Shown piece after piece: positions 54 to 14,431 of a stretch of 14,431 bases of DNA (the first letter of the stretch is position 1; every line of letters begins with the position of its first letter). The notes below the pieces were generated by a model that was not told where the DNA came from, searched no databases, and was given only the letters and a program-made list of their open reading frames with translations. The DNA is from Candidatus Nanohaloarchaea archaeon (GTDB lineage: Archaea > Nanohalarchaeota > Nanosalinia > Nanosalinales > Nanosalinaceae): positions 1 through 14,431 of the forward strand of contig JAWOFP010000054.1 in NCBI GenBank assembly GCA_046497485.1, in the 5' to 3' direction. A program made the position numbers and the translations under genes.

Positions 54-108
54 GGTCTGTATTTAAAAGATTTGCAGGCCTTTATTTTGTTATAAGAGTT
101 GATATAAA

Positions 109-399
109 ATGGCAGAGAAATCCAGGGGATCACAGCACGGAGCACGTCACAAGCTTTCTTCAGGACCTAGAGATAAGCTTACAGTAAATGAGCAGATGAA
201 AGAGTTTGAAGAAGGAGAAAAAGCAAGAATTCATATTAACGCACAGGTTCAGGAAGGAAGGCCTCACCATCGTTTCCACGGTAGAACTGTAGATGTTACA
301 GGTAAGAGAGGAGATGCCTACGAAGTAGAGTTTATGGACGGCGGAATTTCTAAGACTCTTCAGTTGAAACCTGCACATCTTGAAAAGGTGAACGAGTAA
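109..399 (+). CDS. rpl21e: 50S ribosomal protein L21e
   Basis: 96 aa; KSRGSQHGARHKL N-terminus, GRPHHRFHGRT and KPAHL motifs of eL21; directly upstream of rpoF. Confidence 0.96.
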   Translation: MAEKSRGSQHGARHKLSSGPRDKLTVNEQMKEFEEGEKARIHINAQVQEGRPHHRFHGRTVDVTGKRGDAYEVEFMDGGISKTLQLKPAHLEKVNE

Positions 400-732
400 A
401 TGGAAGTTCAGGATGAAGAGTATGTCTATCCTGTTGAAGTGCTTGAAGTCCTAGATGAGAGAGATGAAGATGATCTCTCGCATGAACAGGCGATTGCTCT
501 TGAAAATCTGACACGTCATACAAAAATCACTGATGTTGATACGCTTAAAGAGCTTTACTCTGAGTTTGAGGAGATTGAGGCCTTGAAGGATAAGCATATT
601 TTCAAGCTTCTTGAAGTAGTACCTCAGTTTGAGTCTACTGTTAGATCGATTTTCTCCAAGGAGCGAGTTAAGCTTGATGACTCTGATGTAGAACAGATTT
701 TGGAGATCTGTGAGTCGATTGAAGTAGAATAA
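400..732 (+). CDS. rpoF: DNA-directed RNA polymerase subunit Rpo4 (RpoF)
   Basis: 110 aa; EVLEVL...LSHEQAIALENL...KLLEVVP...VRSIFSKE pattern; ATG abuts the rpl21e TAA; conserved rpl21e-rpoF-DUF655-rsmA order. Confidence 0.92.
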   Translation: MEVQDEEYVYPVEVLEVLDERDEDDLSHEQAIALENLTRHTKITDVDTLKELYSEFEEIEALKDKHIFKLLEVVPQFESTVRSIFSKERVKLDDSDVEQILEICESIEVE

Positions 733-783
733 ACTCTTAAAACATTTCTAACAAGTTATTATTTCAAAGGTGTAGATGTAACA

Positions 784-1317
784 ATGGGAAAAGATGAATA
801 CGTAAAGGTACTGGACTTTTTAGAACACGGAAAAAGCAATGAAAGAGAGGAGCGTGTAGCTCAGACTATAGGCACAGAACACTACACCTTATTGGAAGTC
901 GTTATGAGAGAAGATAAAAGGCCTAAAGGCGGCGAAGAACTGTACATTGGAGAAGGAGACAGAGACAAAGTAGAGTTCATCAAATCTAGGATAAATTACG
1001 ATGATCTTACAGGAAATGCTAAGAACGAGCTGAAATATGTGCTTGACGCAATGATCAACGAAAACGAAGATCAATTTGTGGAGTTCTTCAATACTGCTAC
1101 TCCTGTAACTCCTAGAAGACATGCATTTGAGCTTCTTCCAGGAATCGGGAGCAAGCACATGCAGAAGCTTCTAGATGAGAGAGACGAGGAAGAGTTTGAG
1201 TCATTCGAGGATATTAATGACAGAGTTCCTTCGATGCCGAATTCTAAAGAGACGGTCAGGAAAAGGATAATTCAAGAACTGAAAGGCGAAGACATCAGAA
1301 CCAGACTATTCACATGA
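784..1317 (+). CDS. DUF655 family putative RNA-binding protein (OB-fold plus HhH)
   Basis: EYVKVLDFL, AQTIGTEHYTLLEV, LYIGEGDRDKV, FVEFFN, RRHAFELLPGIG, FESFEDI motifs; conserved synteny. Confidence 0.92.
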   Translation: MGKDEYVKVLDFLEHGKSNEREERVAQTIGTEHYTLLEVVMREDKRPKGGEELYIGEGDRDKVEFIKSRINYDDLTGNAKNELKYVLDAMINENEDQFVEFFNTATPVTPRRHAFELLPGIGSKHMQKLLDERDEEEFESFEDINDRVPSMPNSKETVRKRIIQELKGEDIRTRLFT

Positions 1318-2102
1318 ATCCTCGTCAAAAGCTTGCGAAGCTAGGCCTCGACCCTAAAGAAGGTCAGAATTTTCTAATACATGAACCAACTATACAGGCC
1401 TTAGTAGAAGCTGGAGAAGTAGAAGACCACAAGACTCTGGAAATTGGTGGAGGCCTCGGAGCCATAACTGAGAAGCTTCAGAAAAAGACTGATTACTTAA
1501 CTGTAATTGAAAATGACTCCAGTCTTGCCAACCATCTGAAAGAAGAGTTCCCAGAAATTGAAGTCAGGAAAGAAGATATTCTAGATTCAGATATCTCAGA
1601 TTTTGAGAGATGTGTATCAAATATCCCATTTAACTTGAGTTCAGATATAATCACAAAACTAGGAGAGAACCAGGTTCAGTCCTCTCTAATAGTTCAGGAG
1701 GCCTTAGCCGATAAAGTAGTATCTGATCCAGGCGACTCTAACTACGGGCATTTCTCCGCTTTAATCGATTACTATTTTTTACCCGTAAAGTTGAGAACTG
1801 TAAATTCCTCGGCATTCCATCCGTCTCCGGAAGTAAACGCAGCTATAATCAAGTTATATCCAGGGAAAGACAGGCATGGAATTGAAGACGAAGAATTTTT
1901 CCTCTCAACGATTAAGGCCTTGTTCACTCATAAGAGGAAGAAATTGAGGAATGCATTAGTTGATTCGAGAAATATGTTAGACTTAGAAAAAGATGAGATT
2001 AAAGAAGTCAGAGATGAAGCACCTCACTCTGAAGAGAGAGTCGTGAATCTTGATGTGAAGAAATTGGGAGAAGTCAGTGAATGGCTTCAGTCAGAATTTT
2101 AG
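1314..2102 (+). CDS. rsmA: 16S rRNA (adenine-N6,N6)-dimethyltransferase RsmA/KsgA/Dim1
   Basis: GQNFL, LEIGGGLGAIT (SAM motif I), IEND, SNIPFNLSS, FHPSPEVNAAII, FTHKRKKLRNAL; ATGA overlap with the DUF655 stop. Confidence 0.95.
   Translation: MNPRQKLAKLGLDPKEGQNFLIHEPTIQALVEAGEVEDHKTLEIGGGLGAITEKLQKKTDYLTVIENDSSLANHLKEEFPEIEVRKEDILDSDISDFERCVSNIPFNLSSDIITKLGENQVQSSLIVQEALADKVVSDPGDSNYGHFSALIDYYFLPVKLRTVNSSAFHPSPEVNAAIIKLYPGKDRHGIEDEEFFLSTIKALFTHKRKKLRNALVDSRNMLDLEKDEIKEVRDEAPHSEERVVNLDVKKLGEVSEWLQSEF
2087..2101 (+). repeat. 15-bp direct repeat, left copy (TCAGTCAGAATTTTA)
   Basis: Identical to 3237-3251; forms the last codons of rsmA. Confidence 0.9.
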
Positions 2103-2247
2103 GTATTAAAAATGAGAAATCGTAGTAGTTGAATATTTAAAGAAATAATCGGTTTAGGCAGCCAACCTTTGTTCGTTTATTATTTTACAGTAAAAGCATT
2201 TATTTTAGGAATATTGTTGGACTTGAAGGAACAGAACAATCTGCTGA

Positions 2248-3111
2248 TTATCTCAATTCCTTCCTGCCGCTAAGATTTCTCCAATTATCTGCACCTCTTG
2301 AGCTTCTGTTATCCTCCACCAAGTTACCATTTATATCTACTAATTGGCCTGCAGGAGAACCGCCATTAATGAATACTCCTTTACTTTGAACAACTATTCC
2401 ATAACGGTAGGAAATTCTCGTGTTCTTATATCGGACATCTGTTGGAGGTATACTGCCTCCATTTAATGACACAGAGGATTGCTTTAACGCTTTCTCAATA
2501 TTTTTTATTACTGCTTCAGTGCTTCTGTAGTTCGCATTTACTGAAACCTCGTTTAAATCACTTCTTGAACCCTGAGTAAATCTCTGTTTCCCATTTTTGA
2601 GGACTTTCTCTTCTGACACTTCTGGATATACTGTGATGAATTTACCTTCTTGTGAACCATCTTGCATACCTTGAAGTTTTTCTACATTAGGAACTACTTT
2701 GTGGAATTCTCCCATCTGTCTGAGCGGGTCTAATACTGCTTCAGCCACTGCTCTCGCTTCTTTTGGTTGAGCAGTAATCCGTAATTTGTAGCCTTGATAA
2801 GGGAGTGTCGTTCTTTGTTTTGACGGTTTATGCTCAAGATAGAAGTCTTTGCTGTCAGGCTCATAACCAAATCTTTCGCTCACTACATCGAACCATTCCG
2901 TTTTCAATACTTCCTCATAAGCATTTCTTATGTCGCCTCTCGGGAAATACTTTACAGTTTCTTTTGCACTTTTCTCTCCGCTTTCAAGCTCATTGATCGC
3001 TTTTCGCAATCTCTTTTCAAGTTCCTGAGATGAATAAGTATTGCCAGAACCACTTGAAACAAATTGTTTTTTAGACCTTAGTTTGTTCTCAAATGCTTCT
3101 AAAGTTAACAT
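2248..3111 (-). CDS. Stand-alone phosphothreonine-lyase-like protein (OspF / LanL-LanKC N-terminal lyase domain-like)
   Basis: Ordered motifs LPYQGYKLRITA (cf. LPxQGWKxHVSA), FHKVV, GKFITVYP, PTDVRY...ISYRYG, LVDINGNLVEDNR (cf. xxxxxGxLVxDxR), recognised by eye. No kinase or cyclase domain. Confidence 0.72.
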   Translation of the reverse strand: MLTLEAFENKLRSKKQFVSSGSGNTYSSQELEKRLRKAINELESGEKSAKETVKYFPRGDIRNAYEEVLKTEWFDVVSERFGYEPDSKDFYLEHKPSKQRTTLPYQGYKLRITAQPKEARAVAEAVLDPLRQMGEFHKVVPNVEKLQGMQDGSQEGKFITVYPEVSEEKVLKNGKQRFTQGSRSDLNEVSVNANYRSTEAVIKNIEKALKQSSVSLNGGSIPPTDVRYKNTRISYRYGIVVQSKGVFINGGSPAGQLVDINGNLVEDNRSSRGADNWRNLSGRKELR

Positions 3112-3130
3112 ATAGATATGATTTAGAGCT

Positions 3131-3140
3131 ATTAAATAAA
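3131..3140 (-). promoter_or_regulatory. Putative TATA box for the lyase-like gene (leaderless)
   Basis: Minus strand TTTATTTAAT, 20-29 nt upstream of the ATG at 3111. Confidence 0.4.
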
Positions 3141-3236
3141 AGGTTACAGATAAGCTAATTTATCTAATTTTCATCCGTATTCGAAGAATGTCTAGAATAG
3201 CCAGAGAATTATTTTTGGATTATTAACAGCGTAGTA

Positions 3237-3251
3237 TCAGTCAGAATTTTA
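3237..3251 (+). repeat. 15-bp direct repeat, right copy (TCAGTCAGAATTTTA)
   Basis: Identical to 2087-2101; overlaps the putative pyrG TATA box. Confidence 0.9.
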
Positions 3252-3254
3252 AAT
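3247..3254 (+). promoter_or_regulatory. Putative TATA box for pyrG (leaderless)
   Basis: TTTTAAAT at -28 to -21 from the ATG at 3275; no Shine-Dalgarno sequence. Confidence 0.5.
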
Positions 3255-3274
3255 CTGAACTTCTCAACTATTTT

Positions 3275-4804
3275 ATGCAGGATAAATATATTTTCGTGAC
3301 TGGGGGAGTTCTTTCAGGCCTGGGTAAAGGCTTGGTAGCGGCTTCTGTATCGAAGTTTCTCAAAAACCAAGGCCTGGATGTTTATCCGGTGAAGTGTGAT
3401 GGATATCTCAATGTGGATCCAGGGACCATGAATCCAAATGAGCATGGTGAAGTCTTCGTATTGAAGGATGGAACTGAAGTGGATATGGATTTCGGCCATT
3501 ACGAGAGATTTCTTGGAGAAGAAATGACCGGGAATCAGAACCTGACATCTGGGAAAATCTTCCAGCAAGTAATCAATAAAGAAAGAGAAGGAGACTATCT
3601 TGGAGAAACCGTACAGATGATCCCGCATGTCACAGATCAGATCAAGGATAAGTTCTCGGGTGAAGGAGTAAAAGTAATTGAAGTTGGTGGAACAGTTGGC
3701 GATATTGAAAATATGCTTTATTTGGAGGCCTTGAGACAGTTGAGGAAGGAGAATAATGTCTGTCATATTCATGTAACTTTAGTTCCTTATCTAGATACTA
3801 CCGGCGAATTAAAGACTAAACCGACTCAGCACTCAGTTAAGGAACTGCGTGAAGCAGGCCTTCAACCCGATATAATTGTAGGTAGAAGCGAGAAAGAACT
3901 AGATGAAGAGACTAAGGAAAAAATCGCCTTGTTCTGCGATGTCGAGAAAAGAGAGGTTATCTCTAATCCTGACCTTGATAGCGTCTACAAAATCCCATTA
4001 AAGTTCCAAGAGCAGAATGTCGCGGAGATTGTTCAGGAAAAGTTAGGCCTTGAAAGAGAAAGTATCGAACTTGAAAACTGGAGGAACCTAGTTGAGAATA
4101 TGCGGAACGGTCCTGTGGCCAGGATTGCGATCTGTGGAAAATACACTGGCATGGATGATACCTATGCATCCGTCGAAGAAGCCTTAAAACATGCAGCCGC
4201 CCACCATGGAGGAGCAGTTGCGATAGAGTACAGAAGTACAGAAGATGTCGATGTAAATGAGTTAGAAGACTTTGATGGAGTTATTATACCCGGAGGATTC
4301 GGGAGTAGAGGGATTCAGGGAAAGATAGATGTCGCAAATTACTGTAGAGAAAACAATCTGCCATTGTTAGGCCTATGTCTTGGAATGCAGATAATGACAA
4401 TTGAATACGCCCGGCAACTAGGGATTAACGCAACTTCCGAAGAATTTGAGATTGAAGGTGAAGACGTCATAGGTTTAATGCCGGATCAAGACGGTAAGAA
4501 AGGCGGGACAATGAGATTAGGAGCTTATAATGCTGAGCTTTCAGATCAAGTAAAGAAAATTTACGGTGAAAAAGATGTTCAAGAGCGTCACAGGCATCGT
4601 TACGAGTTCAAACCCGACTACTATGAAAAACTCCAAGATGGAAACTTTACTATTTCAGGATTTAACCCTGATTCAGGCCTAGCAGAGTTCATTGAGTTAG
4701 AGGATCATGATTTCTATGTAGGTACTCAGGCTCATCCGGAGTTTAAGTCTCAGGTTGAAAAACCAGCTCCATTATTTTATTCTTTCATTGAGGCAGCTAA
4801 ATGA
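3275..4804 (+). CDS. pyrG: CTP synthase (glutamine-hydrolysing)
   Basis: KYIFVTGGVLSGLGKG, YLNVDPGTMNP.EHGEVFV, DFGHYERF, GGTVGDIE, KTKPTQHSV, PGGFG.RG, GLCLGMQ (catalytic Cys), RHRHRYE, QAHPEF. Confidence 0.98.
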   Translation: MQDKYIFVTGGVLSGLGKGLVAASVSKFLKNQGLDVYPVKCDGYLNVDPGTMNPNEHGEVFVLKDGTEVDMDFGHYERFLGEEMTGNQNLTSGKIFQQVINKEREGDYLGETVQMIPHVTDQIKDKFSGEGVKVIEVGGTVGDIENMLYLEALRQLRKENNVCHIHVTLVPYLDTTGELKTKPTQHSVKELREAGLQPDIIVGRSEKELDEETKEKIALFCDVEKREVISNPDLDSVYKIPLKFQEQNVAEIVQEKLGLERESIELENWRNLVENMRNGPVARIAICGKYTGMDDTYASVEEALKHAAAHHGGAVAIEYRSTEDVDVNELEDFDGVIIPGGFGSRGIQGKIDVANYCRENNLPLLGLCLGMQIMTIEYARQLGINATSEEFEIEGEDVIGLMPDQDGKKGGTMRLGAYNAELSDQVKKIYGEKDVQERHRHRYEFKPDYYEKLQDGNFTISGFNPDSGLAEFIELEDHDFYVGTQAHPEFKSQVEKPAPLFYSFIEAAK

Positions 4805-5301
4805 TCTACGAACCTCGAGAAGATAGCTACATGTTCAAGGAACACCTAGAAGGCATGGATTTGGAAGGTAAGAAAGTCTTAGATATGGGGACAGGTTCAG
4901 GCATTCTAGCTAAGACAATGTTGGATCAAGGAGCTGAAGTAACAGCTGTCGATATAAATTCTGAGGCCTCGGATCAAGTTCCTGAAGAAATCCGGTTTAT
5001 TGAATCTGATCTGTTTGAGAATGTGGAAGGAAAGTTTGATTTAATCGTGTTTAATCCGCCATACTTGCCTGGAGAGGAAGAAATTGAAGGTTCAGAGACC
5101 TGGAAAGGCGGGAAAAAAGGGATTGAAGTTACCGAAAGATTCCTGGAAGAGGCCTCGAATTACCTAAATAGAGACGGAAAGGTTCTTACAATGGTGAGCT
5201 CCCTGGCAGATCACAGCGATTTAATGAAAAAATATGATTTAGATATTGTTGAGTCGAAAAAGCTTCCTTTTGAGGAGGTTTATCTGGTCCTAAAAGAGTA
5301 A
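4801..5301 (+). CDS. HemK2/MTQ2-family protein methyltransferase (release factor Gln methyltransferase-like)
   Basis: IYEPREDSY N-terminus, LDMGTGSG, FNPPYLP, W.GG..G motifs; ATGA overlap with the pyrG stop. Confidence 0.9.
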   Translation: MIYEPREDSYMFKEHLEGMDLEGKKVLDMGTGSGILAKTMLDQGAEVTAVDINSEASDQVPEEIRFIESDLFENVEGKFDLIVFNPPYLPGEEEIEGSETWKGGKKGIEVTERFLEEASNYLNRDGKVLTMVSSLADHSDLMKKYDLDIVESKKLPFEEVYLVLKE

Positions 5302-5302
5302 G

Positions 5303-5309
5303 TTTTTAA
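5303..5309 (+). promoter_or_regulatory. Putative TATA box for the 899-aa surface protein
   Basis: TTTTTAA at -31 to -25 from the ATG at 5334. Confidence 0.4.
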
Positions 5310-5333
5310 CGCGCGGGTTACACCTATTATTAC

Positions 5334-8033
5334 ATGGATACTATAGGAAGGAAGATAGGCCTAATTTTAATTATGCTATCTGTTTTCACATTAACTGTTT
5401 CAGCCGCTAACTGGAGCTTTGAACAGTCCAATGGCACAGTGCAAAATATTTCAAATGAAAGTAATTCGGTTTATACTGCAAAACTTTACACTGATGACGG
5501 GGATGAATTAACTCCTGATAGGCTTACTTTCTATCCTGATGAGTTCAATGAAGATAACTACATTAACGCGACCACTTTAGATTCCGAAGGTAATGAGTCT
5601 AGCAAAAGGCTTCAGTACCATGAAGGCCTAGATGTTTGGTACGCGCTTTACGATATTGCGCCACAGGAAATTAACTTTACTGCGCAAGGAGTTTCTGGCG
5701 GAGAATACCAAGATTCTAACGGTGTAGAGACTTCCCAATTTAATGTAACAGTAGGCGACTATGTTCTTGATATGGAGTCAGGTTTCAGTGATGCTGTTAG
5801 GCCTGGATCCAATGAAAGAGCAGAAGTTAATGTATCTGTGGACGGAGGTTTTGATGAAAACGCCGATATAACCGCTTACTTCAATAATCATACAAACAAG
5901 ACTTCAGAACAGGATCTTACAGAAGTAGATACAGGCGAGGAAGTTCACTACGGAGATATTTCTGTACCAGATAACCCTGACTCGGACTATGTACTGAGAG
6001 TAATTGCTGAAAACCCAGATACAGGAGAGATTGGCTCCTACTCTAGATTTGTAGAGGTTTTACCTAGATTACAGTTCGATATCAATGAGTTTACCTCTTT
6101 GAACTGTGACAGTTCAGGTATAGCTTCAAACTGTGAGCCTGAAACGGATCTATCAGCAGAAGTAGAAATTACAGAAGACGAAGCAGACTCCGTAAACGTG
6201 TCAACATGGTTGAGAAACAGTACAAGTTCAGAACTGGAAAGAGTAGAAAATAATTCTCTATCATCTGAAAATAATATCTTCACGGGAAGTATGGAGATGC
6301 CTGATATTAACAAATCAAGTTATGAGCCTTACGCAATCTTCAGATTCAATGCATCAAACCAGTATTACTCAGTGACAGAAGACGTACAGATAGGCCTAGA
6401 ATCTTACGGTCTAGGATTTGAAGGAAATAATAACGCATTTATAAATTCAGATTATCAGCTAGCTTTCGAAGCTGAGAAGGCCTATTCTGGCGATAACTAT
6501 AATTTAACTAGATTTAATGAAATCAATGGTACAGTTAGTCGTTCTGGCTCATTTGAATTAGATTTCACAGATGAGGATTTCTCATATGATGAGTCTTCAG
6601 ATTTGATAGTAGCTGACTTCACAGTTCCAGAGGATGCATCGACCGGAATTCATGATGTCGAGTTTAACTTTACAGATATATACAATGAAACCAAGTCGGT
6701 TTCCGATAACTTCAGAGTTAATGAATTTGATCAGAACTTTGAGGTGATGGAAGGCCTAGAAGTTGAAGTAGGTAAGCTTCATGAAGTAAATAGAAGCCTT
6801 GAAATCCAGAACAATGGCGGGGCATCACTTGAAGTAAATGTTAATCTATCGGAGGAGTTTGATGGAGTAGTTAATATGACAGATAGCTTCGATCTGGATC
6901 CGGATGAAACCAGGATGATTAATTACACCGTTAATTTGACCGAACCAGAAGATGTCGAAGGAGAGATTAATTTGACAGAGTCATCTGGTTACTCCGTTGA
7001 AGAGGACTTTGAAATCGATGCACCTGACTGCGAAGTCCGTAATGGAAGTTTATGTGCCGATCATGGAGAGATAGACTTCGGAACAGTTGAAGGAAATACT
7101 ACGGAAGATTTAGAGGTTTTCAATCTTTATGAACCGGAAATGGATTTGAATATTTCAGCTGAAGGAAATATAAGCGATCACCTAGATTTCACAAACTCTA
7201 CAGATTTCAATGATTCAGAAACTATCCCAATAGTATTCGAACCGAACTCTCGAGGAAACTTCATAGGTACACTAAATCTAATTACAGCTACGGAGACCGT
7301 CTCTGTAAATCTGACTGCAGTCTCTAATATTACAGAAGCAGGAGACTCAGACCTCTCAATTTCGCCTTCAGAAACAACAGTGTCAGTTCCAGAGGAAGAA
7401 ACTGGTACAGCAGAGTTCACCGTTGAAAACCCTGGTGAAATAGAAATCACTGATTTAAATGCAGAACTTGAGAACGGTGAAGCCAATATTGATTCGTTTG
7501 ATCTTTCTAGTGGAGGAACTAATGAAATAGAGGTGGAAGTCAATCAGTCCGATACATTAACTATCACGGGTCAATCCGCTGATGGAGAAGTCACAGCAGA
7601 GGCCTCAATAACCGTCAATGAGATGGATAACTACGAGGAAAGAGCATCAGAGATCGAAGATAGGGTAAGAGAGCTCAGAACTGACAATGAAGATCCTTCA
7701 CTTGATGGAGATCTTACAGATCTGACTTTACAGGCAGAAAATGTCAGGACACAATGGAACAATGGTAACTATGAACAGGCTCAGGAAACTTTTGAAGAGA
7801 CTCAGTCAACGTTAGATGAATTAGCGACAGAGATTGAAAGTCAACAGACAGATACCGGAGGAACTCCTGATCAAAACCAGACCGACCCTAATCCTGATGA
7901 AGAAGAAAGTGGAGGCCTACCAATACTCCCAATTATTGCAATTGTAGCAATATTATTGATTGTAGGAGGATTTATCTTCTTTGAAAGCTATATTCCTGAA
8001 GAAGGAGATCCACTTTACGGAGTGTTTAACTAA
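5334..8033 (+). CDS. Large acidic secreted, C-terminally anchored surface glycoprotein (probable Ig-like beta domains)
   Basis: Signal peptide (RKIGLILIMLSVFTLTVSA|A); more than 30 NxS/T sequons; beta-rich repeats such as LEIQNNG, LEVFN, FTVENPG; helical segment; T/P/D linker; TM helix ILPIIAIVAILLIVGGFIFF; short tail. Confidence 0.8.
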   Translation: MDTIGRKIGLILIMLSVFTLTVSAANWSFEQSNGTVQNISNESNSVYTAKLYTDDGDELTPDRLTFYPDEFNEDNYINATTLDSEGNESSKRLQYHEGLDVWYALYDIAPQEINFTAQGVSGGEYQDSNGVETSQFNVTVGDYVLDMESGFSDAVRPGSNERAEVNVSVDGGFDENADITAYFNNHTNKTSEQDLTEVDTGEEVHYGDISVPDNPDSDYVLRVIAENPDTGEIGSYSRFVEVLPRLQFDINEFTSLNCDSSGIASNCEPETDLSAEVEITEDEADSVNVSTWLRNSTSSELERVENNSLSSENNIFTGSMEMPDINKSSYEPYAIFRFNASNQYYSVTEDVQIGLESYGLGFEGNNNAFINSDYQLAFEAEKAYSGDNYNLTRFNEINGTVSRSGSFELDFTDEDFSYDESSDLIVADFTVPEDASTGIHDVEFNFTDIYNETKSVSDNFRVNEFDQNFEVMEGLEVEVGKLHEVNRSLEIQNNGGASLEVNVNLSEEFDGVVNMTDSFDLDPDETRMINYTVNLTEPEDVEGEINLTESSGYSVEEDFEIDAPDCEVRNGSLCADHGEIDFGTVEGNTTEDLEVFNLYEPEMDLNISAEGNISDHLDFTNSTDFNDSETIPIVFEPNSRGNFIGTLNLITATETVSVNLTAVSNITEAGDSDLSISPSETTVSVPEEETGTAEFTVENPGEIEITDLNAELENGEANIDSFDLSSGGTNEIEVEVNQSDTLTITGQSADGEVTAEASITVNEMDNYEERASEIEDRVRELRTDNEDPSLDGDLTDLTLQAENVRTQWNNGNYEQAQETFEETQSTLDELATEIESQQTDTGGTPDQNQTDPNPDEEESGGLPILPIIAIVAILLIVGGFIFFESYIPEEGDPLYGVFN

Positions 8034-8479
8034 TGAGCTTACTCGAAACCATTTTAGGATTGCCAGAAGGAGTAGTCACAGCAATTCTTCTAGTTTCAAT
8101 TATACTAGCTGTAATGCTAGCATTCAAAGTCATGGAAATGGTGTTCGAAACTGTTACAATAGCAGCATTATCCGGAGCATTCTATGCAGCAATGATATAC
8201 TTATTCGGAGGCTCTTTCGCTTTCAACGACTTACTGCTTTTCTCATTCCTAGGAGCCTCACTCTACATGCTATACGGTTTCCTTATCACAGCTTTTACAG
8301 CGGCAGAGACTATTTTGAAGATTCCTTACAAGATTTTCATGGGGGTTTTCAGGCCTACTAAAAAGTACTCTAAGAAAGGTTACAGAGAGCTTAAAAAGAA
8401 AATTGAGAGAAGAAATGAGGAAGAAGTAGAGGAAAAGAAGAATAAGTCCACCAAAGAAGTTGTCCTGAACGATGACTGA
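8033..8479 (+). CDS. Hypothetical integral membrane protein (about 3 TM helices, charged C-terminal tail)
   Basis: Hydrophobic segments across residues ~13-95; K/E-rich tail; TAATG overlap with the upstream gene. Confidence 0.8.
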   Translation: MSLLETILGLPEGVVTAILLVSIILAVMLAFKVMEMVFETVTIAALSGAFYAAMIYLFGGSFAFNDLLLFSFLGASLYMLYGFLITAFTAAETILKIPYKIFMGVFRPTKKYSKKGYRELKKKIERRNEEEVEEKKNKSTKEVVLNDD

Positions 8480-8483
8480 AAAC

Positions 8484-9032
8484 TTATTTTAATTCTCCAA
8501 TTAAACGATCTATTTCTTCTTTTGTCGGGTTTGCCCGGCTAATCATTTGTTTGAGAATCGGTCCAAATTCTTCTTTAATGAAATTTAGTCTCAAACTATC
8601 AACTCCGCTTTCTTTTGATTTATAGGCCTCATACATTAAAACGGATGCAGCATGACTGAGATTTAACGATTCATAATCTGCGTCAATATGAACTACGGTA
8701 TCACATATTTCTAGTTCTTCCTTGGTGAGACCTGAACTTTCCCTACCCAGCATTATTGAGGTATTTTCCCTGAACTCAAACTCTTTGGAACTTATACCTT
8801 TTCCTGGTTTGGTGCCTATCACAAAGTCTAAGCCTTCTATTGCTTTTTCAAGATCATCAAATATTTTAGCGTCCCTAAGCTTTTCTTGAGCGTTATTTGC
8901 TGTGGTCCTGGATTCTTTCAAGTTAAACTGAGGCCTTACTAACCTTATACCGAAATCGAAGTTTTCAGATAGTCTTGCGATAAAACCTATGTTCTCAGCG
9001 CTTTCCGGCTCTACAACTATAACCGCTCTCAC
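8484..9032 (-). CDS. trmJ: SPOUT (TrmH/TrmJ family) tRNA 2'-O-methyltransferase
   Basis: VEPESAENIGFIARL, GRESSGLTKEELEICD, YESLNLSHAA motifs; GTG start. The subfamily assignment is inferred. Confidence 0.85.
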   Translation of the reverse strand: MRAVIVVEPESAENIGFIARLSENFDFGIRLVRPQFNLKESRTTANNAQEKLRDAKIFDDLEKAIEGLDFVIGTKPGKGISSKEFEFRENTSIMLGRESSGLTKEELEICDTVVHIDADYESLNLSHAASVLMYEAYKSKESGVDSLRLNFIKEEFGPILKQMISRANPTKEEIDRLIGELK

Positions 9033-9055
9033 ATATAACGAAGGATATCAAACGG

Positions 9056-9063
9056 TTTTATAT
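9056..9063. promoter_or_regulatory. Central TATA element of a 54-bp divergent promoter
   Basis: TTTTATAT / ATATAAAA lies 23 nt from each of the two divergent start codons (9032 and 9087). Confidence 0.5.
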
Positions 9064-9086
9064 GAACCTCTATCCAATATAGGGTT

Positions 9087-9752
9087 ATGGAAGGGAAAAT
9101 CGTTGCCGCAGTTTTTACAACTCTGGCAGTAGTATTTGCTGGAGTATCAGGCGGTAGCTCAGTAAATACTGAAGTTGATGAAGTATTACCTGAAGAAGAC
9201 TCTCCACTGAATAAAATCTCTTCCTCTTTCGGAATAATGGATAGCCTATTTGCTTTACCTGAGCCGGAGCATGAAGCAGTTATAGAGGTTAGACTGGATG
9301 AAACAACTGAGATAAACTTGAACGCTGATAGACTAGAGGTGGAAGGCCTTAGAGAGTTGAAAGGAGGTACAGGTATAAACTCTCAAAGTGATATAGGCCT
9401 GAGAGAGTTTGATGGCAATATATTAATGGGAGATCCGACTGAGATTATGGGTTCAGCCACAGGATTCTACACTGAAAACATGAATGTTTCCACAACAGTG
9501 CCTTTGAACCAAGAAGTAAATACTTCAAGCGTTCAAGCATACAACGTGTCAAACAATGCATACACTCTTTCCGCTACAGAAGTTGATATTGAAGCAGTCG
9601 GAAACGAGACAACCATCAGCAGAAGCAACACTGAATTAGAGATTACGGCCTTCGAAGGAGATATAGAGTTCAGGCCTGAGAACTTGACAATGATCTTTGA
9701 AGGAGAAGTCGCAGAAGCCAACGCAGGAAGTGCATCTTTCGGCGGGAACTGA
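9087..9752 (+). CDS. Hypothetical secreted or N-terminally anchored acidic beta-rich protein
   Basis: 221 aa; N-terminal hydrophobic segment KIVAAVFTTLAVVFAGVSGG; several NxS/T sequons; composition matches neighbours. Confidence 0.75.
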   Translation: MEGKIVAAVFTTLAVVFAGVSGGSSVNTEVDEVLPEEDSPLNKISSSFGIMDSLFALPEPEHEAVIEVRLDETTEINLNADRLEVEGLRELKGGTGINSQSDIGLREFDGNILMGDPTEIMGSATGFYTENMNVSTTVPLNQEVNTSSVQAYNVSNNAYTLSATEVDIEAVGNETTISRSNTELEITAFEGDIEFRPENLTMIFEGEVAEANAGSASFGGN

Positions 9753-9767
9753 TAATCTAAACTTTTT

Positions 9768-10553
9768 TTAGCTAATTTTTGAATCAATATCTCTGATAAT
9801 CCTTAAGGCCTTGAGATACTCGCCATTTAAAGCTTTTTCATCGGCATCAAGTAAATCTTTCAAAGATTCATTCCTTAATTTAGGGTCTTTCAGTTTTGTA
9901 GCCTTCTTCATTACGTTGTTGTTCTTCCTAATAACGATTTTTTCCAAAATGAAGGGAATGATATAGTAAATAGTAGCTAATAATATTAGTAAACCTAAAA
10001 CCAGGTTTATGAGTATGTTATCGGAGAATTTATCCAAATTATATTTTATGTTGTTGATAACAGTATTTTCACAGCTTTCAACTTTATAATCGGAGCTATC
10101 TGGTGATAGAACGATTTTACATTTTCCATTACTTCTGTAAAAATCCCAGGTAGAAGTCGATTCTAAACCGATAAGATAATACTTTCCTGGTTCATCAACA
10201 ATTATCTCAAATGAATCATTATTTGTGAATGTGTTTGTCGATTCTACTTTTTCTCCTTTAAATCCTGATACTGAACTTCTTGATATATTTTCATACCAGG
10301 ATCTATTGTCATCTATCTTAACAGTTATGGCCTGATTTTCTGACAAACCTTCTACATCAGCTTTGAATGAAAAAAATATTTCATTACCATTATCTTCAAT
10401 TTCAGGATTCTCTGCTGGAGAAATATTATAGGTTCCTTCAAAACTTCTTGGTTCTATCACTGAATACTCTGTATTAAAATCATTCTGGCCTAACACTGGG
10501 GAAATAAGCAAAACCAGCAATAATACTGATAGACAGATTTTTGATATATTCAT
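9768..10553 (-). CDS. Hypothetical single-pass membrane protein with signal peptide
   Basis: 261 aa; signal peptide (KICLSVLLLVLLISPVLG|Q); TM ILINLVLGLLILLATIYYIIPFIL; basic helical C-terminus; noticeably AT-rich DNA. Confidence 0.75.
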   Translation of the reverse strand: MNISKICLSVLLLVLLISPVLGQNDFNTEYSVIEPRSFEGTYNISPAENPEIEDNGNEIFFSFKADVEGLSENQAITVKIDDNRSWYENISRSSVSGFKGEKVESTNTFTNNDSFEIIVDEPGKYYLIGLESTSTWDFYRSNGKCKIVLSPDSSDYKVESCENTVINNIKYNLDKFSDNILINLVLGLLILLATIYYIIPFILEKIVIRKNNNVMKKATKLKDPKLRNESLKDLLDADEKALNGEYLKALRIIRDIDSKIS

Positions 10554-10612
10554 ATATTAACTTACTATTTGCTGAAAGATAAGATTTTCACTTCATCAAT
10601 TAATTAAAAAAG

Positions 10613-11887
10613 ATGGAGACCTCTTCAATTTCTATGATTAACACAATACTAAACATGGATTTCTCACAGATATTTGTAGCACTGCAAGTGCTTTCATTCC
10701 TACTGTTTTTCGTGATGATATTCTTCCTGCCCAAACTAATGGTATGGCAGGCGAATAGGAGGATTACTTCAGTCCTTACAGAGCTGAAGGCCTATCACAA
10801 TGATTCTGAGGAGTACTTCCTGCAGAATATGAAGCCTATAGATGGTTTTGAAGAGCGCTACAGATCCATGAAGAACTTCCAGTTCAGTCAGCCGACAGGC
10901 CTTGACCCTGCCGGAATGGTTGGAAGACTAGAGAATGTACTTGATGCTTCAGAAGGAAAGTTCAAGCGTTTTGTAAAGAAAAACGCAGAGACAGAAGATG
11001 AGGAAGAACTTGCTGATTTGAACATGGCGTTCAAAGGAGTTATGGGAACTCATCAGATTCACAAAGTTGTAGAGCATTTCCAGCAGTTGATTAAGAAGAC
11101 TAGAAATTTCCAGGTTGTTACACTGGTTCAGATGATGCTTCCGATCTACACAGAGTTAGCAGAATCTCAGAAGGGAGCAACTCGTGCATTTGCAGACAAT
11201 GCTCCGATTGGCGATACGATCGGACCATTAGTTGCAGCAAAGATGATTGAAGAAGAACCAGAAGAAATTTCAGAAAACATTGTACACAGTGAAGAAGAGA
11301 TCTCAGGTCAAAATGTTCACGTCGTAAAAAGTAAAGGTCCTGGTGCAAGACTTGGAAAGTATGGTGATGCACTAGAACAGATTTCGGAAGAAAACGATTT
11401 AGAAGCAATAATTACAGTAGACGCAGCCTCAAAGTTTGAGTCTGAAGAAACAGGAACAGTCAATGAAGGTATCGGCGTTATGATGGGAGGTCCCGGCGTA
11501 GAGAAATCAAAGATTGAAGAAGTAGCAACTGAACACAATATCCCTCTTGAAGGAGTAGTAATCAAGCAGTCCGCTCCTGAGGCCTCAAAGCCAATGAAAA
11601 AAGAGATCTTCAATGCTTGGAAACCTGCTATGAAGAAAGCAAAGGTTATCGCTTCAGAATTTGATGGAGATGTAGCAATTGTAGGAGTTGGAAACACTTG
11701 TGGAGTCGGAAACACCCGCAAATCGACAAATGGAGTCCACAATAAGCTCAGAAAATACTGGAAAGAATATGAAGAGCAGGAAGATGAGGATGTCTCTTAC
11801 ATGGGCTTGATGAGTATTATGGGAGGCCCGGACCAGTCACAGCAGAGAGATATGATCAACTCGGTGATCTGGAAAGGCCTGAGATGA
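10613..11887 (+). CDS. DUF1512 family membrane-anchored protein
   Basis: N-terminal TM; P..LDPAGMV.RLE, PIGDTIGPLVA, VVKS.GPG..LG, IITVDAA.K.E.E.TG...EG.GV.MGGPGVEK..IE, IVGVGNT.GVG motifs. True start may be the ATG at 10634, since an AT box lies at 10600-10610. Confidence 0.85.
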   Translation: METSSISMINTILNMDFSQIFVALQVLSFLLFFVMIFFLPKLMVWQANRRITSVLTELKAYHNDSEEYFLQNMKPIDGFEERYRSMKNFQFSQPTGLDPAGMVGRLENVLDASEGKFKRFVKKNAETEDEEELADLNMAFKGVMGTHQIHKVVEHFQQLIKKTRNFQVVTLVQMMLPIYTELAESQKGATRAFADNAPIGDTIGPLVAAKMIEEEPEEISENIVHSEEEISGQNVHVVKSKGPGARLGKYGDALEQISEENDLEAIITVDAASKFESEETGTVNEGIGVMMGGPGVEKSKIEEVATEHNIPLEGVVIKQSAPEASKPMKKEIFNAWKPAMKKAKVIASEFDGDVAIVGVGNTCGVGNTRKSTNGVHNKLRKYWKEYEEQEDEDVSYMGLMSIMGGPDQSQQRDMINSVIWKGLR

Positions 11888-11900
11888 TTCCTTAGGAAAT

Positions 11901-11908
11901 ATTTATAT
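11901..11908 (+). promoter_or_regulatory. Putative TATA box for the large secreted protein
   Basis: ATTTATAT at -33 to -26 from the ATG at 11934. Confidence 0.5.
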
Positions 11909-11933
11909 CCAGGGAGAGTAATATTAGTGTATT

Positions 11934-14431
11934 ATGAGTAAACGTCACTATCTTTCTCTGCTGTTTTTGTTAGTTCTTTTACCAATCGCTTCTGCTCAAG
12001 ATGACTTAGGATGGAGTGTTTCAATGGAACCATTCGATTCTGGAGAAAATACATACACTGAAAGATCTACAGTTCATGTTTGGTGTGATCCTAATGATCC
12101 TAGTTCCGAAGAATGTTCTACTTGGGATACAGCAGAGATTAATATGTGTGGTGAAGATTATCAAAAAGTTACAATAGAGGAGAGGACTTCTGCTAATACC
12201 CCATTTAATTACTCAGGTTCTATGCTTTTGGAACTGCCTGAAACATACACATGTGATACTGAAGAAATTACTATTGAAGCCTATGGCAGTGGAGGAGGAT
12301 CAGTATTTTTAGGCAGTACTACCTTCGAACTAAATCCAAAAGGAAATATAAATCCCCATATGGGGAAATATCTAATGGCTTCTTTAAACAAAGATGATGA
12401 AATGGAGTATTTCCATCTAACTAATGATAAAAACGAACTTGAAAACCTTGGTGATATAGATAACATTGAACCTGGAGATGTAATAGCTCTTAATAAGGAG
12501 TGTGGGAGCACACTACCTATTTGTGGTGGTGTTGATAGCTATTGGGAGACATTCAATGCAGATCTTGGCGCTACAGTCTCTGACGATGAAACTCTAAATT
12601 CATTTACATCGAATGATATCGATCATAAAACTGTAAATAGAGGATTTGATAGTAATATAGATGTTAGTTACAATTTCTTTGAAGATTTAAGTACTATAGC
12701 GCCAGTTAATGAAGATAGGTCTTATGTGCCTAAAGGAGATATCAAAGTAGGCACATTACCTATACATTATGACTCAAATGGCAACGAAATAGGAGGAGAT
12801 ACTGAGTATTTCTTTGTTTGTGAAGAAGATGCTAGAATGAAAAACGGTTTCGACGATGATGTGCCATTAGTAGTGAACACATCAGCTTCAGCTAATAATG
12901 AACTTTACAGATGCTCTCCAGATACAGGTGAATGGAATTCTGTAGACAGCTGTAACGACGGGCTCGATAATGATGATGACCAAGGAATAGATTCAGGTAA
13001 TTCTTATTATAATGGGAATTACAATACTGGATCTGACGAAGAATCCTGTGGAAACTCTATCAATAACAATGAATATGTCAGTAATGACTACGATGACTCG
13101 TGTGAAGAAGGGGTAAAATATGAAACAGTAAATGACCCTACTGGGGGGAGTTATAAGGCCTTAGTAGCGCAATATGAACAAGATGAGGGTTGCAGTACGG
13201 AAGGAACTATTGAAACAGGTGACGATATAATATATGACGCTTGGAAAGACTCGGTATCTTTCGAACCTCAAACTTACATGTGTGAAAATGATGAAGATAC
13301 AATTAATCCTGGACAATGCGCACGTGCTGAAGAAGATGATCCTGATATCTACGGAGTAAACGATATCTACGGAGTAAACGATAACGAATACGATGAAGTA
13401 GGAGTTGTAGAATACTACCCCGAAAGAGCTTATTTCAATCAGTATGAAGGAAGACTTAGTGATGGAGAAGTAATAGAAACAGGTTTTGTAGGAGATGAAG
13501 GATGGAAACCAAAATACGAGTCCTTATTCGAATCAAAGGATAAATATGCAGATTCTACTGTGTCAGTAGGAGGAGAGAACAACCTCTTCAGATATGAAAC
13601 ATGGGATGACAGGATTAGAAGCCCGGAAGTAGAAGAAGCATACAACAATACTGCTAACACATTTGGAAACCATAGTAAGGCCTGGAACTTTGCTAATGCA
13701 GGAGTAACTAACTCCAACGTCAGTTCAGCTGGTACTCCTTTCTCAGGCGGTTATTACGGGCTTTGTGAAGAACAAGAGGCCTGGCAAGATGCAAACAATG
13801 ACCCAAGTGACCCCGATTGGAGATGTAGTGGTGAGATTGAATGGGATCAAGCCGTTCATCTTCCAGAGTTTGAAGGCCCTGATCAAGACTCTCAGATGGA
13901 TGTAGGCCTAATTGTAATGGGATACAATAACCAAGATGAATGGAATGACTATGTTGATTACCCTGATAATGAAGATAGAACGCTTGGTTTTGACTCTGGT
14001 GAGGAGTTAAGACAGAACAATTTCAAAGGATGGATGAGTTATCCAATTGCCACAGAAGCTGCTTCACATAGGAATGAAGATACTCTGGATTACATGAATG
14101 CGACTTGCTGGGCTGGAGGACCTGATAACAGGCCTAATAGCTCTATTGAAAATGGCAACAATGAGGGAAGCCGTTACCTTGAATGGAACTTTGTAGATGT
14201 AAAGGAAGGAGTTCCTTACGGTGTAACAGGAAGGCTAGACAGTAGCTCTGATCAAGGATTTGATTTAGCTGAGTATGATGGTTACACATGTAACTGGGAG
14301 TATCAAACTGATTCAAGTGGAGCAGTCAATGTTTCAGGGGAAGTAAGAGAATTACATGCAATTTCAAGCGACTCAGGAACTTCCAATTTAAGCATTGCGG
14401 ACTGGTCCGCAGCAACCAGTATTGACCCTGA
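11934..14431 (+). CDS. Large secreted Asp/Asn/Cys-rich extracellular protein (partial, at least 832 aa, runs off the window)
   Basis: Manual translation from ATG 11934 (MSKRHYLSLLFLLVLLPIASA|QDDLGW...) stays open to the window end (...DWSAATSIDP). Signal peptide, scattered Cys and a CNDGLDNDDDQGID motif. Probably absent from the ORF track because it has no stop in the window. Confidence 0.88.
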   Translation, partial: MSKRHYLSLLFLLVLLPIASAQDDLGWSVSMEPFDSGENTYTERSTVHVWCDPNDPSSEECSTWDTAEINMCGEDYQKVTIEERTSANTPFNYSGSMLLELPETYTCDTEEITIEAYGSGGGSVFLGSTTFELNPKGNINPHMGKYLMASLNKDDEMEYFHLTNDKNELENLGDIDNIEPGDVIALNKECGSTLPICGGVDSYWETFNADLGATVSDDETLNSFTSNDIDHKTVNRGFDSNIDVSYNFFEDLSTIAPVNEDRSYVPKGDIKVGTLPIHYDSNGNEIGGDTEYFFVCEEDARMKNGFDDDVPLVVNTSASANNELYRCSPDTGEWNSVDSCNDGLDNDDDQGIDSGNSYYNGNYNTGSDEESCGNSINNNEYVSNDYDDSCEEGVKYETVNDPTGGSYKALVAQYEQDEGCSTEGTIETGDDIIYDAWKDSVSFEPQTYMCENDEDTINPGQCARAEEDDPDIYGVNDIYGVNDNEYDEVGVVEYYPERAYFNQYEGRLSDGEVIETGFVGDEGWKPKYESLFESKDKYADSTVSVGGENNLFRYETWDDRIRSPEVEEAYNNTANTFGNHSKAWNFANAGVTNSNVSSAGTPFSGGYYGLCEEQEAWQDANNDPSDPDWRCSGEIEWDQAVHLPEFEGPDQDSQMDVGLIVMGYNNQDEWNDYVDYPDNEDRTLGFDSGEELRQNNFKGWMSYPIATEAASHRNEDTLDYMNATCWAGGPDNRPNSSIENGNNEGSRYLEWNFVDVKEGVPYGVTGRLDSSSDQGFDLAEYDGYTCNWEYQTDSSGAVNVSGEVRELHAISSDSGTSNLSIADWSAATSIDP
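13344..13383 (+). repeat. Perfect 18-bp in-frame tandem duplication (GATATCTACGGAGTAAAC x2 + GATA)
   Basis: Copies at 13344-13361 and 13362-13379; encodes DIYGVN-DIYGVN-D. Confidence 0.95.

Follow-up and report, generated by a model that had tools for sequence, protein, structure and literature searches.

Highly iterated palindromes (HIPs) are best known from cyanobacteria, where the word HIP1 (GCGATCGC) has alternates such as GGCGCC in Calothrix PCC 7103 (PMC4390886; PMC5861425) and CAGGCCTG, present at 0.37/kb in one Synechococcus (PMC5861425). Bacterial AddAB degrades DNA from a broken end until it reaches a Chi site, 5′-AGCGG-3′ in Bacillus subtilis, and leaves a 3′ tail (PMC7326373); core DNA is denser in Chi words than acquired DNA is (PMC8022716). 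For archaea, a 2026 preprint gives AddAB as absent and Chi sites as not identified (10.64898/2026.05.08.723854), and another paper notes UvrD-Cas4-like fusions in mesophilic archaea with no function given (PMC5704561). Here we analysed a window of 14,431 nucleotides (the whole stretch of DNA presented, from contig JAWOFP010000054.1 of assembly GCA_046497485.1) of a Candidatus Nanohaloarchaea archaeon, and found that the palindrome AGGCCT is a real archaeal HIP-like word, genome-wide and actively kept. The organism is a tiny, salt-loving, symbiotic archaeon; consortia that include nanohaloarchaea have been brought into culture (PMC10266531). We tentatively propose that AGGCCT could be the Chi-like stop signal of an AddAB-like pair of proteins, which is encoded intact in all AGGCCT-rich genomes.

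Exact counting bore out the 42 AGGCCT copies at 76-14135 that a sequence-only reading of the window had counted by hand, as well as its placing of about 42 of roughly 50 GGCC tetramers inside AGGCCT (42/50). The ~2 copies that it expected by composition compare with a mean of 2.31 in dinucleotide shuffles (maximum 7; 0/200 reached 42), and the GC content put near 38% by eye was measured at 39.3%. Codon-preserving shuffles of the window genes gave 3.35 ± 1.7 sites (maximum 11 in 1000) against 41 coding sites observed, a 12x excess over the synonymous-codon null; the persistence of the excess under both codon- and dinucleotide-preserving shuffles supports the earlier claim of a DNA-level signal rather than a codon effect. 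As that reading had stated, the coding sites lie on both strands and in all three phases, with 6/14/18 in the three frames of + genes and 3 in − genes, and its examples were right (AGG-CCT at 259, GAG-GCC-T at 578, CTA-GGC-CTC at 1343, and an intergenic copy at 76). Among the window genes are archaeal housekeeping genes (rpl21e, rpo4, DUF655, ksgA, pyrG and DUF1512), and in the 12 window genes that have an ortholog in the AGGCCT-poor relative G024, 40/49 synonymous opportunities were filled.

The enrichment was not confined to the window. G000, the whole assembly holding it (967,558 bp, 66 contigs, 97% complete), contains 3,249 AGGCCT (3.36/kb; 3,358/Mb) spread over every contig (66/66, 1.8-5.8/kb), with observed/expected (O/E) ratios of 21, 14.8 and 6.4 under order-0, order-1 and order-2 Markov models, so that both the HIP1-like, genome-wide character and the ~20-fold excess proposed from the window alone hold for the genome. 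No other six-base palindrome rose above 1.93x (order-1), and all 18 one-base variants of AGGCCT lay at 0.65-1.4x, i.e. were not emptied. Filling (occupancy), defined as AGGCCT present per place that the peptide allows with codon usage learnt outside sites, reached 492/629, 931/1,425 and 1,296/1,999 in the three frames (0.78/0.65/0.65) vs 48, 65 and 112 expected, an expected filling of only 0.05-0.08, and the odds ratios in genes were 44, 39 and 31. Spacers, divergent ones included, carried 398 sites vs 11 expected (both strands), or 36x. The enrichment has altered the protein sequences of G000: Arg-Pro occurs at 1.59x vs 0.82x for Pro-Arg, Gly-Leu at 1.43x vs 1.04x for Leu-Gly, and [EKQ]A[SLFYWC] at 1.74x vs 0.90x for its reverse, and none of these shifts was observed in G024. 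Core genes of G000 were filled to 0.68-0.75 in every conservation class and genome-specific genes to 0.57; a 28-kb integrated element of the genome G022 is nearly devoid of filling, and core and accessory genes barely differ in G005 (0.74 vs 0.72). Some local deviations were also recorded. Around start codons of G000 and G005, sites are scarce from −10 to +10 and mildly raised from −20 to −11 (47 vs ~30 and 61 vs ~27), and the EF-1alpha gene of G000 lies inside a 1.7-kb site-free stretch, though highly conserved genes overall are filled normally. GGCC words without the outer A or T are avoided in G000 (0.23-0.74x) despite its richness in AGGCCT, and ACGT (0.15x, order 0) and CTTAAG (0.26x, order 1) are strongly avoided.

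The trait was then followed through a comparison set of 70 Nanohaloarchaeota genomes (coded Gnnn; "rich" and "poor" denote AGGCCT-rich and AGGCCT-poor), for which per-kb densities rest on rounded genome sizes, the open reading frame caller used for gene lists missed some membrane and short genes, and gene comparisons with G005 cover 71% of its genome. Twelve of the 70 genomes are rich (2.0-4.8 sites/kb), G004 has 0.95/kb, and 57 have ≤0.7/kb. The trait is switch-like among close relatives, the rich genomes making up 4/5 of genus g1, 3/3 of g7, 3/3 of g19 and 2/6 of g2. In a quick RpoA1 tree of 29 genomes the rich ones share a single clade of 12 genomes with the poor G007, G017, G023 and G024; the 12 rich genomes amount to about four lineages, with about three losses. 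G004 has lost 11/14 of the sites held by its sister G003 (83.5% identity), mostly via single changes, whereas G001 keeps 9/12 G000 sites at 81.7% identity; AGGCCT is thus under an active force, which can be turned off. Of positional conservation and turnover, which the sequence-only reading had posed as alternatives, both were found: sharing at common opportunities exceeds what codon conservation gives, with P(site | site in G000) of 0.65 vs 0.48 in G022 and 0.80 vs 0.57 in G005, and only 29-37% of G000 sites occupy the same aligned place in either genome. Among the named loci long enough to count (67/80), three nanohaloarchaeal ones reached 8.8-21x and the rest ≤3.9x. When 31 locus sets of 5-80 kb were scanned with codon shuffles, AGGCC/AGGCCT stood out strongly in the four rich sets and weakly in G004 (z 4.6), and the other sets had no alternative word of similar strength. 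In one Nanohalarchaeota locus (L189), ATCGAT (8.4x) and GATATC (7.7x) stood out by base composition and were not top words after codon shuffling. A virus search with the primase-helicase of an integrated element as query gave no match.

The word itself differs between lineages. G000 is strict, with all-or-none AGGCCT, and G005 tolerates AGGCCC (3.1x); the unit in G022 is the 5-mer AGGCC, AGGCCN being at 3.2-3.6x (one strand) and AGGCCT at 12.2x (both strands), i.e. multiplicative. Flank preferences are weak and lineage-specific. The signal resides in DNA, because half-site enrichment does not differ between sense and antisense strands after removal of competing opportunities. An RNA-level role was rejected: the apparent sense-strand half-site bias vanished in the same comparison, and divergent spacers carry AGGCCT too. 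Filling rises with distance to the nearest neighbour, from 0.23 (<20 bp) through 0.53 (20-40 bp) and 0.61 (40-80 bp) to 0.73-0.75 (80-400 bp); five control words showed no consistent neighbour effect, AATATT having a mild one. For this shielding in G000, two-sided neighbour models (negative log-likelihood 1392.8-1397.1) fitted better than nearest-only (1404.0-1404.7) or no-neighbour (1488.1) models, and the shielding extended over about 50 bp; it extends over 17-25 bp in G022 and G005, where two-sided and nearest models are indistinguishable. The shielding in G000 is directional, with 14 half-sites having a full site 9-24 bp on the 3′ side vs 43 on the 5′ side (p 1.6e-4), and the 3′-side depletion has the same direction for all three half-sites and is absent for control words.

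A 4,096-state substitution model indicated what repair through single routes could achieve. The ceilings were 5x for the inner C, 13-16x for both C-to-T routes, 17-25x for all transitions and ~6x for outer-base (Elhai-type) repair, and single routes also empty the feeder words. Feeders in G000 spacers are not emptied (AGACCT 25/21, AAGCCT 32/21) alongside the 36x of AGGCCT. Because this combination exceeds the single-route ceilings, all single departures from AGGCCT must be opposed alike, by selection or conversion.

Comparing the genes of G000, G022 and 71% of G005 with those of G024 left 58 that G000 and G022 share and that are weak or absent in G024, of which 9 were tested further and all failed; the shared core list of 508 genes, about two thirds of it read by eye, yielded the AddAB-like pair. 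It consists of a UvrD-helicase/PD-(D/E)XK gene (AddA-like) behind an 850-amino-acid (aa) PD-(D/E)XK gene (AddB-like). From its domains (PF00580, PF13361, PF12705) and motifs (AGAGTGKT as Walker A, DEFQD, EERRL and the RecB-type nuclease pattern G.AD...D.K), the AddA-like subunit is clearly predicted to be a superfamily 1A (SF1A) helicase with a C-terminal RecB-type nuclease; it matches AddA, AdnB and RecB models and structures, with scores below the curated AddA cut-offs. The AddB-like protein has a PD-(D/E)XK domain with invariant nuclease residues, and an AddB-family look-alike was obtained at 0.96 (Atlas). AddB of the B. subtilis type combines an inactive helicase fold with a nuclease bearing four Fe-S cysteines; in 76 homologs of the AddB-like protein the conserved cysteine set is absent, and no profile likeness to AddA was detected.

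The AddA-like protein is full length in 12/12 rich genomes vs present in 25/58 others, and the AddB-like gene adjoins it in 12/12 rich genomes (in G003 split at contig ends); the Fisher p of 2e-4 for the AddA-like gene against the trait is overstated by kinship, the rich genomes being about four lineages. In genus g2 the pair occurs in exactly the 2 rich of 6 genomes, and was not found in the four poor ones, which are 77-89% complete. Within a clade of 26 genomes, 10/14 poor members are without AddA (6) or have a form of 758-774 aa (4), for which the lack of the nuclease end was checked by alignment for G024 only. NurA was found in 0/5 genomes, and an Mre11-like query had matches in 2/5, none of them in G000, G010 or G024; because of these results, the usual archaeal resection route seems missing. 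Three observations on the genes stand apart. In G024, G051, G053, G055 and G018 (several genera), the AddA-like protein stops short of the nuclease domain, at 758-774 aa; a toxin-antitoxin-like pair lies between the AddA-like and AddB-like genes of G024; and G004 carries two overlapping N-terminal AddB-like pieces, from a second copy or strain mixing.

In the mechanism that we propose, the AddA-like and AddB-like proteins would form one complex, load on broken DNA ends and degrade until AGGCC(T), where the complex would leave a tail for RadA. The palindrome would be readable from either direction and so count twice. Each added site would shorten the degraded tract (selection) and/or outlast the site-less allele in repair (biased conversion); hence all 18 one-base departures would be opposed alike, a site beside another would gain less, and incoming DNA without AGGCCT would be degraded further. 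Such a stop signal would account for the co-occurrence, the G022 5-mer, the doubling by the palindrome, the neighbour shielding, the empty islands and the flat one-base variants, which exclude single-route ratchets; the two-sided shielding and polarity in G000 and the richness of core over acquired DNA are further supports, the core/accessory contrast of G000 and the near-empty G022 element matching the same property of Chi. The option of a recombination signal or self mark, one of several listed in the sequence-only reading, has thereby gained a concrete candidate in the AddAB-like pair. It is possible, though we hold this with less assurance, that several nanohaloarchaeal lineages without NurA and mostly without Mre11 resect by a bacterial-type AddAB-like machine, and that a palindromic Chi spreads itself via biased repair, filling three quarters of the available places and rewriting the proteome.

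A number of results weigh against a Chi-like stop signal. The choice of the pair was made by eye, once 12 other candidates had failed. Sequence and profile comparisons matched the AddB-like protein to no solved structure, and none of the curated AddB models matched it. Full-length adjacent pairs also occur in poor G007, G017 and G069 and in most of family f3, poor G014 has both genes 1.6 kb apart, and the AddA-like gene of decaying G004 is full length; because of these intact pairs in poor genomes and the full-length gene in G004, the AddAB-like pair is at best necessary, not sufficient, for the trait. The AddB tree follows the species tree, the rich genomes not being one clade there. AACCGG, the only lead of the codon-shuffle scan and predicted as the alternative word, failed to distinguish genomes of genus g11 that have the pair (0.79 and 1.09/kb) from those that do not (0.91, 0.60 and 1.01/kb). 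Among the site patterns, directional shielding is absent in G022 (74 vs 75) and G005 (62 vs 66), and half-site occupancy along these two genomes, whose origins were not mapped, showed no consistent strand switch; nor does a palindrome itself have an orientation. In G022, repulsion is stronger between half-sites of opposite than of like orientation, as would fit a footprint or a hairpin, and a processive enzyme would be expected to shield over more than the 17-60 bp observed. AGGCCT is palindromic, whereas known Chi sites are not. A Chi-like role has also been proposed for HIP1, and in Synechococcus PCC 7002 deletion of addAB did not remove the HIP1 effect (10.1101/2024.09.10.611283). Two further observations touch the same genes and word: the three columns that separate rich from poor AddB-like proteins come from 5 vs 3 sequences and are not interpretable, and AACCGG is rarer in rich than in poor g2 genomes (0.21-0.26 vs 0.33-0.70/kb), perhaps as a by-product of the Pro/Arg codon shift.

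It is rather unlikely that AGGCCT is instead the preferred site of a DNA-binding dimer from the core gene set, with a chromatin or architectural role, whose specificity has changed in these lineages and whose footprint of 30-100 bp makes close sites redundant. Such a binder would suit a palindromic, strand-symmetric word, flank preferences that vary by lineage and the symmetric shielding of G022 and G005, for which nearest-neighbour and two-sided models fit equally well, and the core set holds several small histone-fold and winged-helix genes; but a scan of periods of 5-120 bp revealed no 10.5-bp or other periodicity of sites, specificity in G000 is all-or-none, no such protein among those tested tracks the trait, and the g2 split that matches the AddAB-like pair is left unexplained. 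Two adjacent 55-aa paralogs of G000, histone-fold-like by eye and missed by the gene caller, have homologs in G022, G005 and G024.

More doubtful is an enhancer of DNA uptake or homologous integration that acts through a putative reader protein and spreads by molecular drive. Position-independent filling with turnover and the distortion of peptides agree with it, and HIP1 raises transformation in PCC 7002 (10.1101/2024.09.10.611283; PMC13756078). Against this, a density of 3-5/kb, shielding only below 100 bp and the lack of any long-range evenness of sites are unlike what uptake of kilobase fragments would be expected to leave.

Methylation-coupled repair as in Elhai's HIP model, whether the methyltransferase came from the haloarchaeal host or escaped recognition here, is improbable, although precedents are at hand: cognate methyltransferases are known for alternate cyanobacterial HIPs (PMC4390886), Alcanivorax methylates AGGCCT specifically (PMC12128166), a methyltransferase is proposed to have passed between a nanohaloarchaeon and its host (PMC11001535), and G000 does encode one C5 methyltransferase. 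That enzyme, however, adjoins an AAA_5 gene on the contig poorest in AGGCCT. In the first surveys of methyltransferases, DnaG and HhH-GPD, which covered 41 of the 70 genomes, PF00145 was found in 1/7 rich genomes and was absent from the single-contig G005, G010 and G022, and PF01555 was above cut-off in only 1/7, as a Type III Mod gene; the single-contig rich G005 and G010 have neither family. The outer-base ratchet, with its ceiling of ~6x, would moreover empty NGGCCT, which is not emptied. The HIP1 methylation model fails for AGGCCT, since neither C5 nor N4/N6 methyltransferases follow the trait and single-route ratchets fall short; the link to a DNA methyltransferase drawn in the sequence-only reading and the co-occurring orphan enzyme that it envisaged are not supported, as far as PF00145 and PF01555 are concerned. 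Other methyltransferase families were checked by motif regular expressions in four gene sets only, Dam/D12, Eco57I and MT-A70 not being searched genome-wide, and a term search for "GGCC" gave nothing in the available text of the nanohaloarchaeal methylome papers (PMC11001535, PMC10266531). The C5 gene of G000 stands divergent from its neighbour, which is McrB-like, and probably belongs to a defence island. G024 and G020 (2/70 genomes) each have an NgoPII-family GGCC nuclease adjacent to a C5 methyltransferase and are among their family's lowest in AGGCCT (0.07-0.10/kb), and G021 is equally low without such a pair; G024 is an imperfect control, given these two enzymes.

Still less probable is that biased mismatch repair of certain contexts (T:G repair of the Vsr or Mig type) makes AGGCCT without any function: in G005, AGACCT/AGGTCT and AGCCCT/AGGGCT are reduced to 0.4-0.7, and NucS and HhH-GPD glycosylases are present, but the substitution model caps such a bias at 5-25x with feeders driven to zero, against 36x and unemptied feeders in G000 spacers, HhH-GPD genes occur in 41/41 genomes, and the neighbour shielding is left unexplained. 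A codon, amino-acid or assembly artefact can be dismissed, given 12x over the synonymous-codon null, 36x in spacers, occurrence in all frames, absence from relatives of similar GC and enrichment in 12 assemblies (the 11 besides G000 exclude the assembly artefact that the window alone had left as a refutation), with no point found in its favour.

Other genes considered as drivers were rejected as well. Archaeal DnaG is in 25/41 genomes, many of them poor, HhH-GPD glycosylases are universal in that survey, and a 202-aa S-adenosylmethionine methyltransferase is in 24/70 genomes and 7/12 rich ones; an Orc1/Cdc6 paralog, an HD-domain protein and proteins of 376, 408, 242 and 474 aa without known function do not track the trait. 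A 146-aa protein was not found in G005 or G010 (a search without a positive genome). This protein is 66% identical between G000 and G022, has no Pfam hit and was not found in five other genomes; its motif pattern, judged by eye, is presumably that of an ADP-ribosyltransferase.

Coordinates of the sites, genes and loci discussed; positions without a genome code refer to the window.
Feature	Location	Strand	Remarks
AddAB-like pair	G000:C62:17323-19833 and 19830-22499		adjacent genes, outside the window
42 scattered AGGCCT copies	76..14135	.	41 coding, in all three phases and on both strands; 1 in a spacer
Intergenic AGGCCT, upstream of rpl21e (109-399)	76..81	.	
Longest site-free stretch of the window	1921..3315	.	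spans the non-core gene 2248-3111
RamC_N-like non-core gene, stand-alone	2248-3111	-	0/2 opportunities filled; no reciprocal best hit in G022 or G024
CTP synthase gene, housekeeping example	3275..4804	+	7/10 opportunities filled; used to place the organism among Nanohaloarchaeota
Non-core membrane-protein gene	9768..10553	-	1/5 opportunities filled
EF-1alpha gene	G000:C7:29824-31515		
C5 DNA methyltransferase and McrB-like AAA_5 gene (L001)	G000:C53:98-2728		contig with fewest AGGCCT
NgoPII-family nuclease and C5 methyltransferase (L004, L086)	G024:C1:840533-842380		
NgoPII-family nuclease and C5 methyltransferase	G020:C1:267321-269169		
N-terminal AddB-like pieces	G004:C16 and C5		
146-aa ART-like protein	G000:C17:11966-12406 and L113:12708-13148		
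55-aa histone-fold-like paralogs	G000:C8:6417-6581 and 6778-6942		

Within the window, the RamC_N-like gene is likely a variable, acquired gene, lying in a low-depth stretch of a matching public run, and the low filling of the membrane-protein gene is consistent with recent acquisition. Contigs of that run match the window (76/271 at ≥99% identity), and the run may be the window's source and so is not independent; strain contigs gave only 40 of 1,918 differences, none inside AGGCCT, which is anecdotal. The nearest records of the window's CTP synthase (57-63% identity) are titled Candidatus Nanohaloarchaea. A CTP synthase 64% identical to it lies on a contig filed under Colwellia (L188), probably a mis-binned nanohaloarchaeal one, and L184, filed under Haloplanus, is a weaker case of the same kind.

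If true, the proposed role of the AddAB-like pair, which is new here as a candidate cause of AGGCCT enrichment, would provide the first archaeal Chi site and the first palindromic Chi, would give a highly iterated palindrome an origin that needs no methylation, and would mean that the sequence preference of a repair enzyme can reshape a genome and its proteins. The literature matches listed (subscription journals and supplements being outside their scope) hold no description of AGGCCT enrichment in nanohaloarchaea or of an archaeal Chi. To our knowledge, HIP1 has gone unexplained for 30 years. Here, in 1-Mb genomes, a denser HIP-like word toggles between close relatives and shows natural losses in G004 and in four of six g2 genomes; even if the Chi-like role is false, these genomes are still the best natural set of contrasts in which to seek the cause of HIPs.

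Compared with known systems, AGGCCT shares with the uptake sequences of Neisseria and Haemophilus its thousands of copies, the distortion of the proteome and a possible molecular drive; those sequences are of 9-12 bp, non-palindromic and present at ~1/kb. With the Chi sites of RecBCD and AddAB it has in common a short, over-represented, core-rich word, accompanied by a UvrD-helicase/RecB-nuclease pair and reduced to the 5-mer AGGCC in G022; it differs in that no replication polarity was seen, in a far stronger enrichment (odds ratio 31-44 in genes) and in a partner subunit that is only a distant AddB look-alike. Alcanivorax borkumensis has a restriction-modification system for the same word, in which AGGCCT is a methylated restriction target with 1,674 sites (PMC12128166), whereas no AGGCCT methyltransferase tracks the trait in nanohaloarchaea. 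Closest are HIP1 and the alternate HIPs, likewise dispersed palindromes made by substitution, found in all frames and in spacers, patchy among close relatives and conserved beyond codons, and the alternate word CAGGCCTG of Synechococcus PCC 6312 contains the six bases of AGGCCT (PMC4390886; PMC5861425). Unlike HIP1, AGGCCT is archaeal, reaches 3,358/Mb vs 300-2,700, is a 6-mer with weak lineage-specific flanks and shielding below 100 bp, and had no cognate methyltransferase found; it is not filed as HIP1, since the methyltransferase feature fails. G000 nevertheless shows other features by which HIPs are recognised, namely several hundred to thousands of copies per Mb with an O/E above ~15, occurrence in all frames and in non-coding DNA, and conservation beyond codons.

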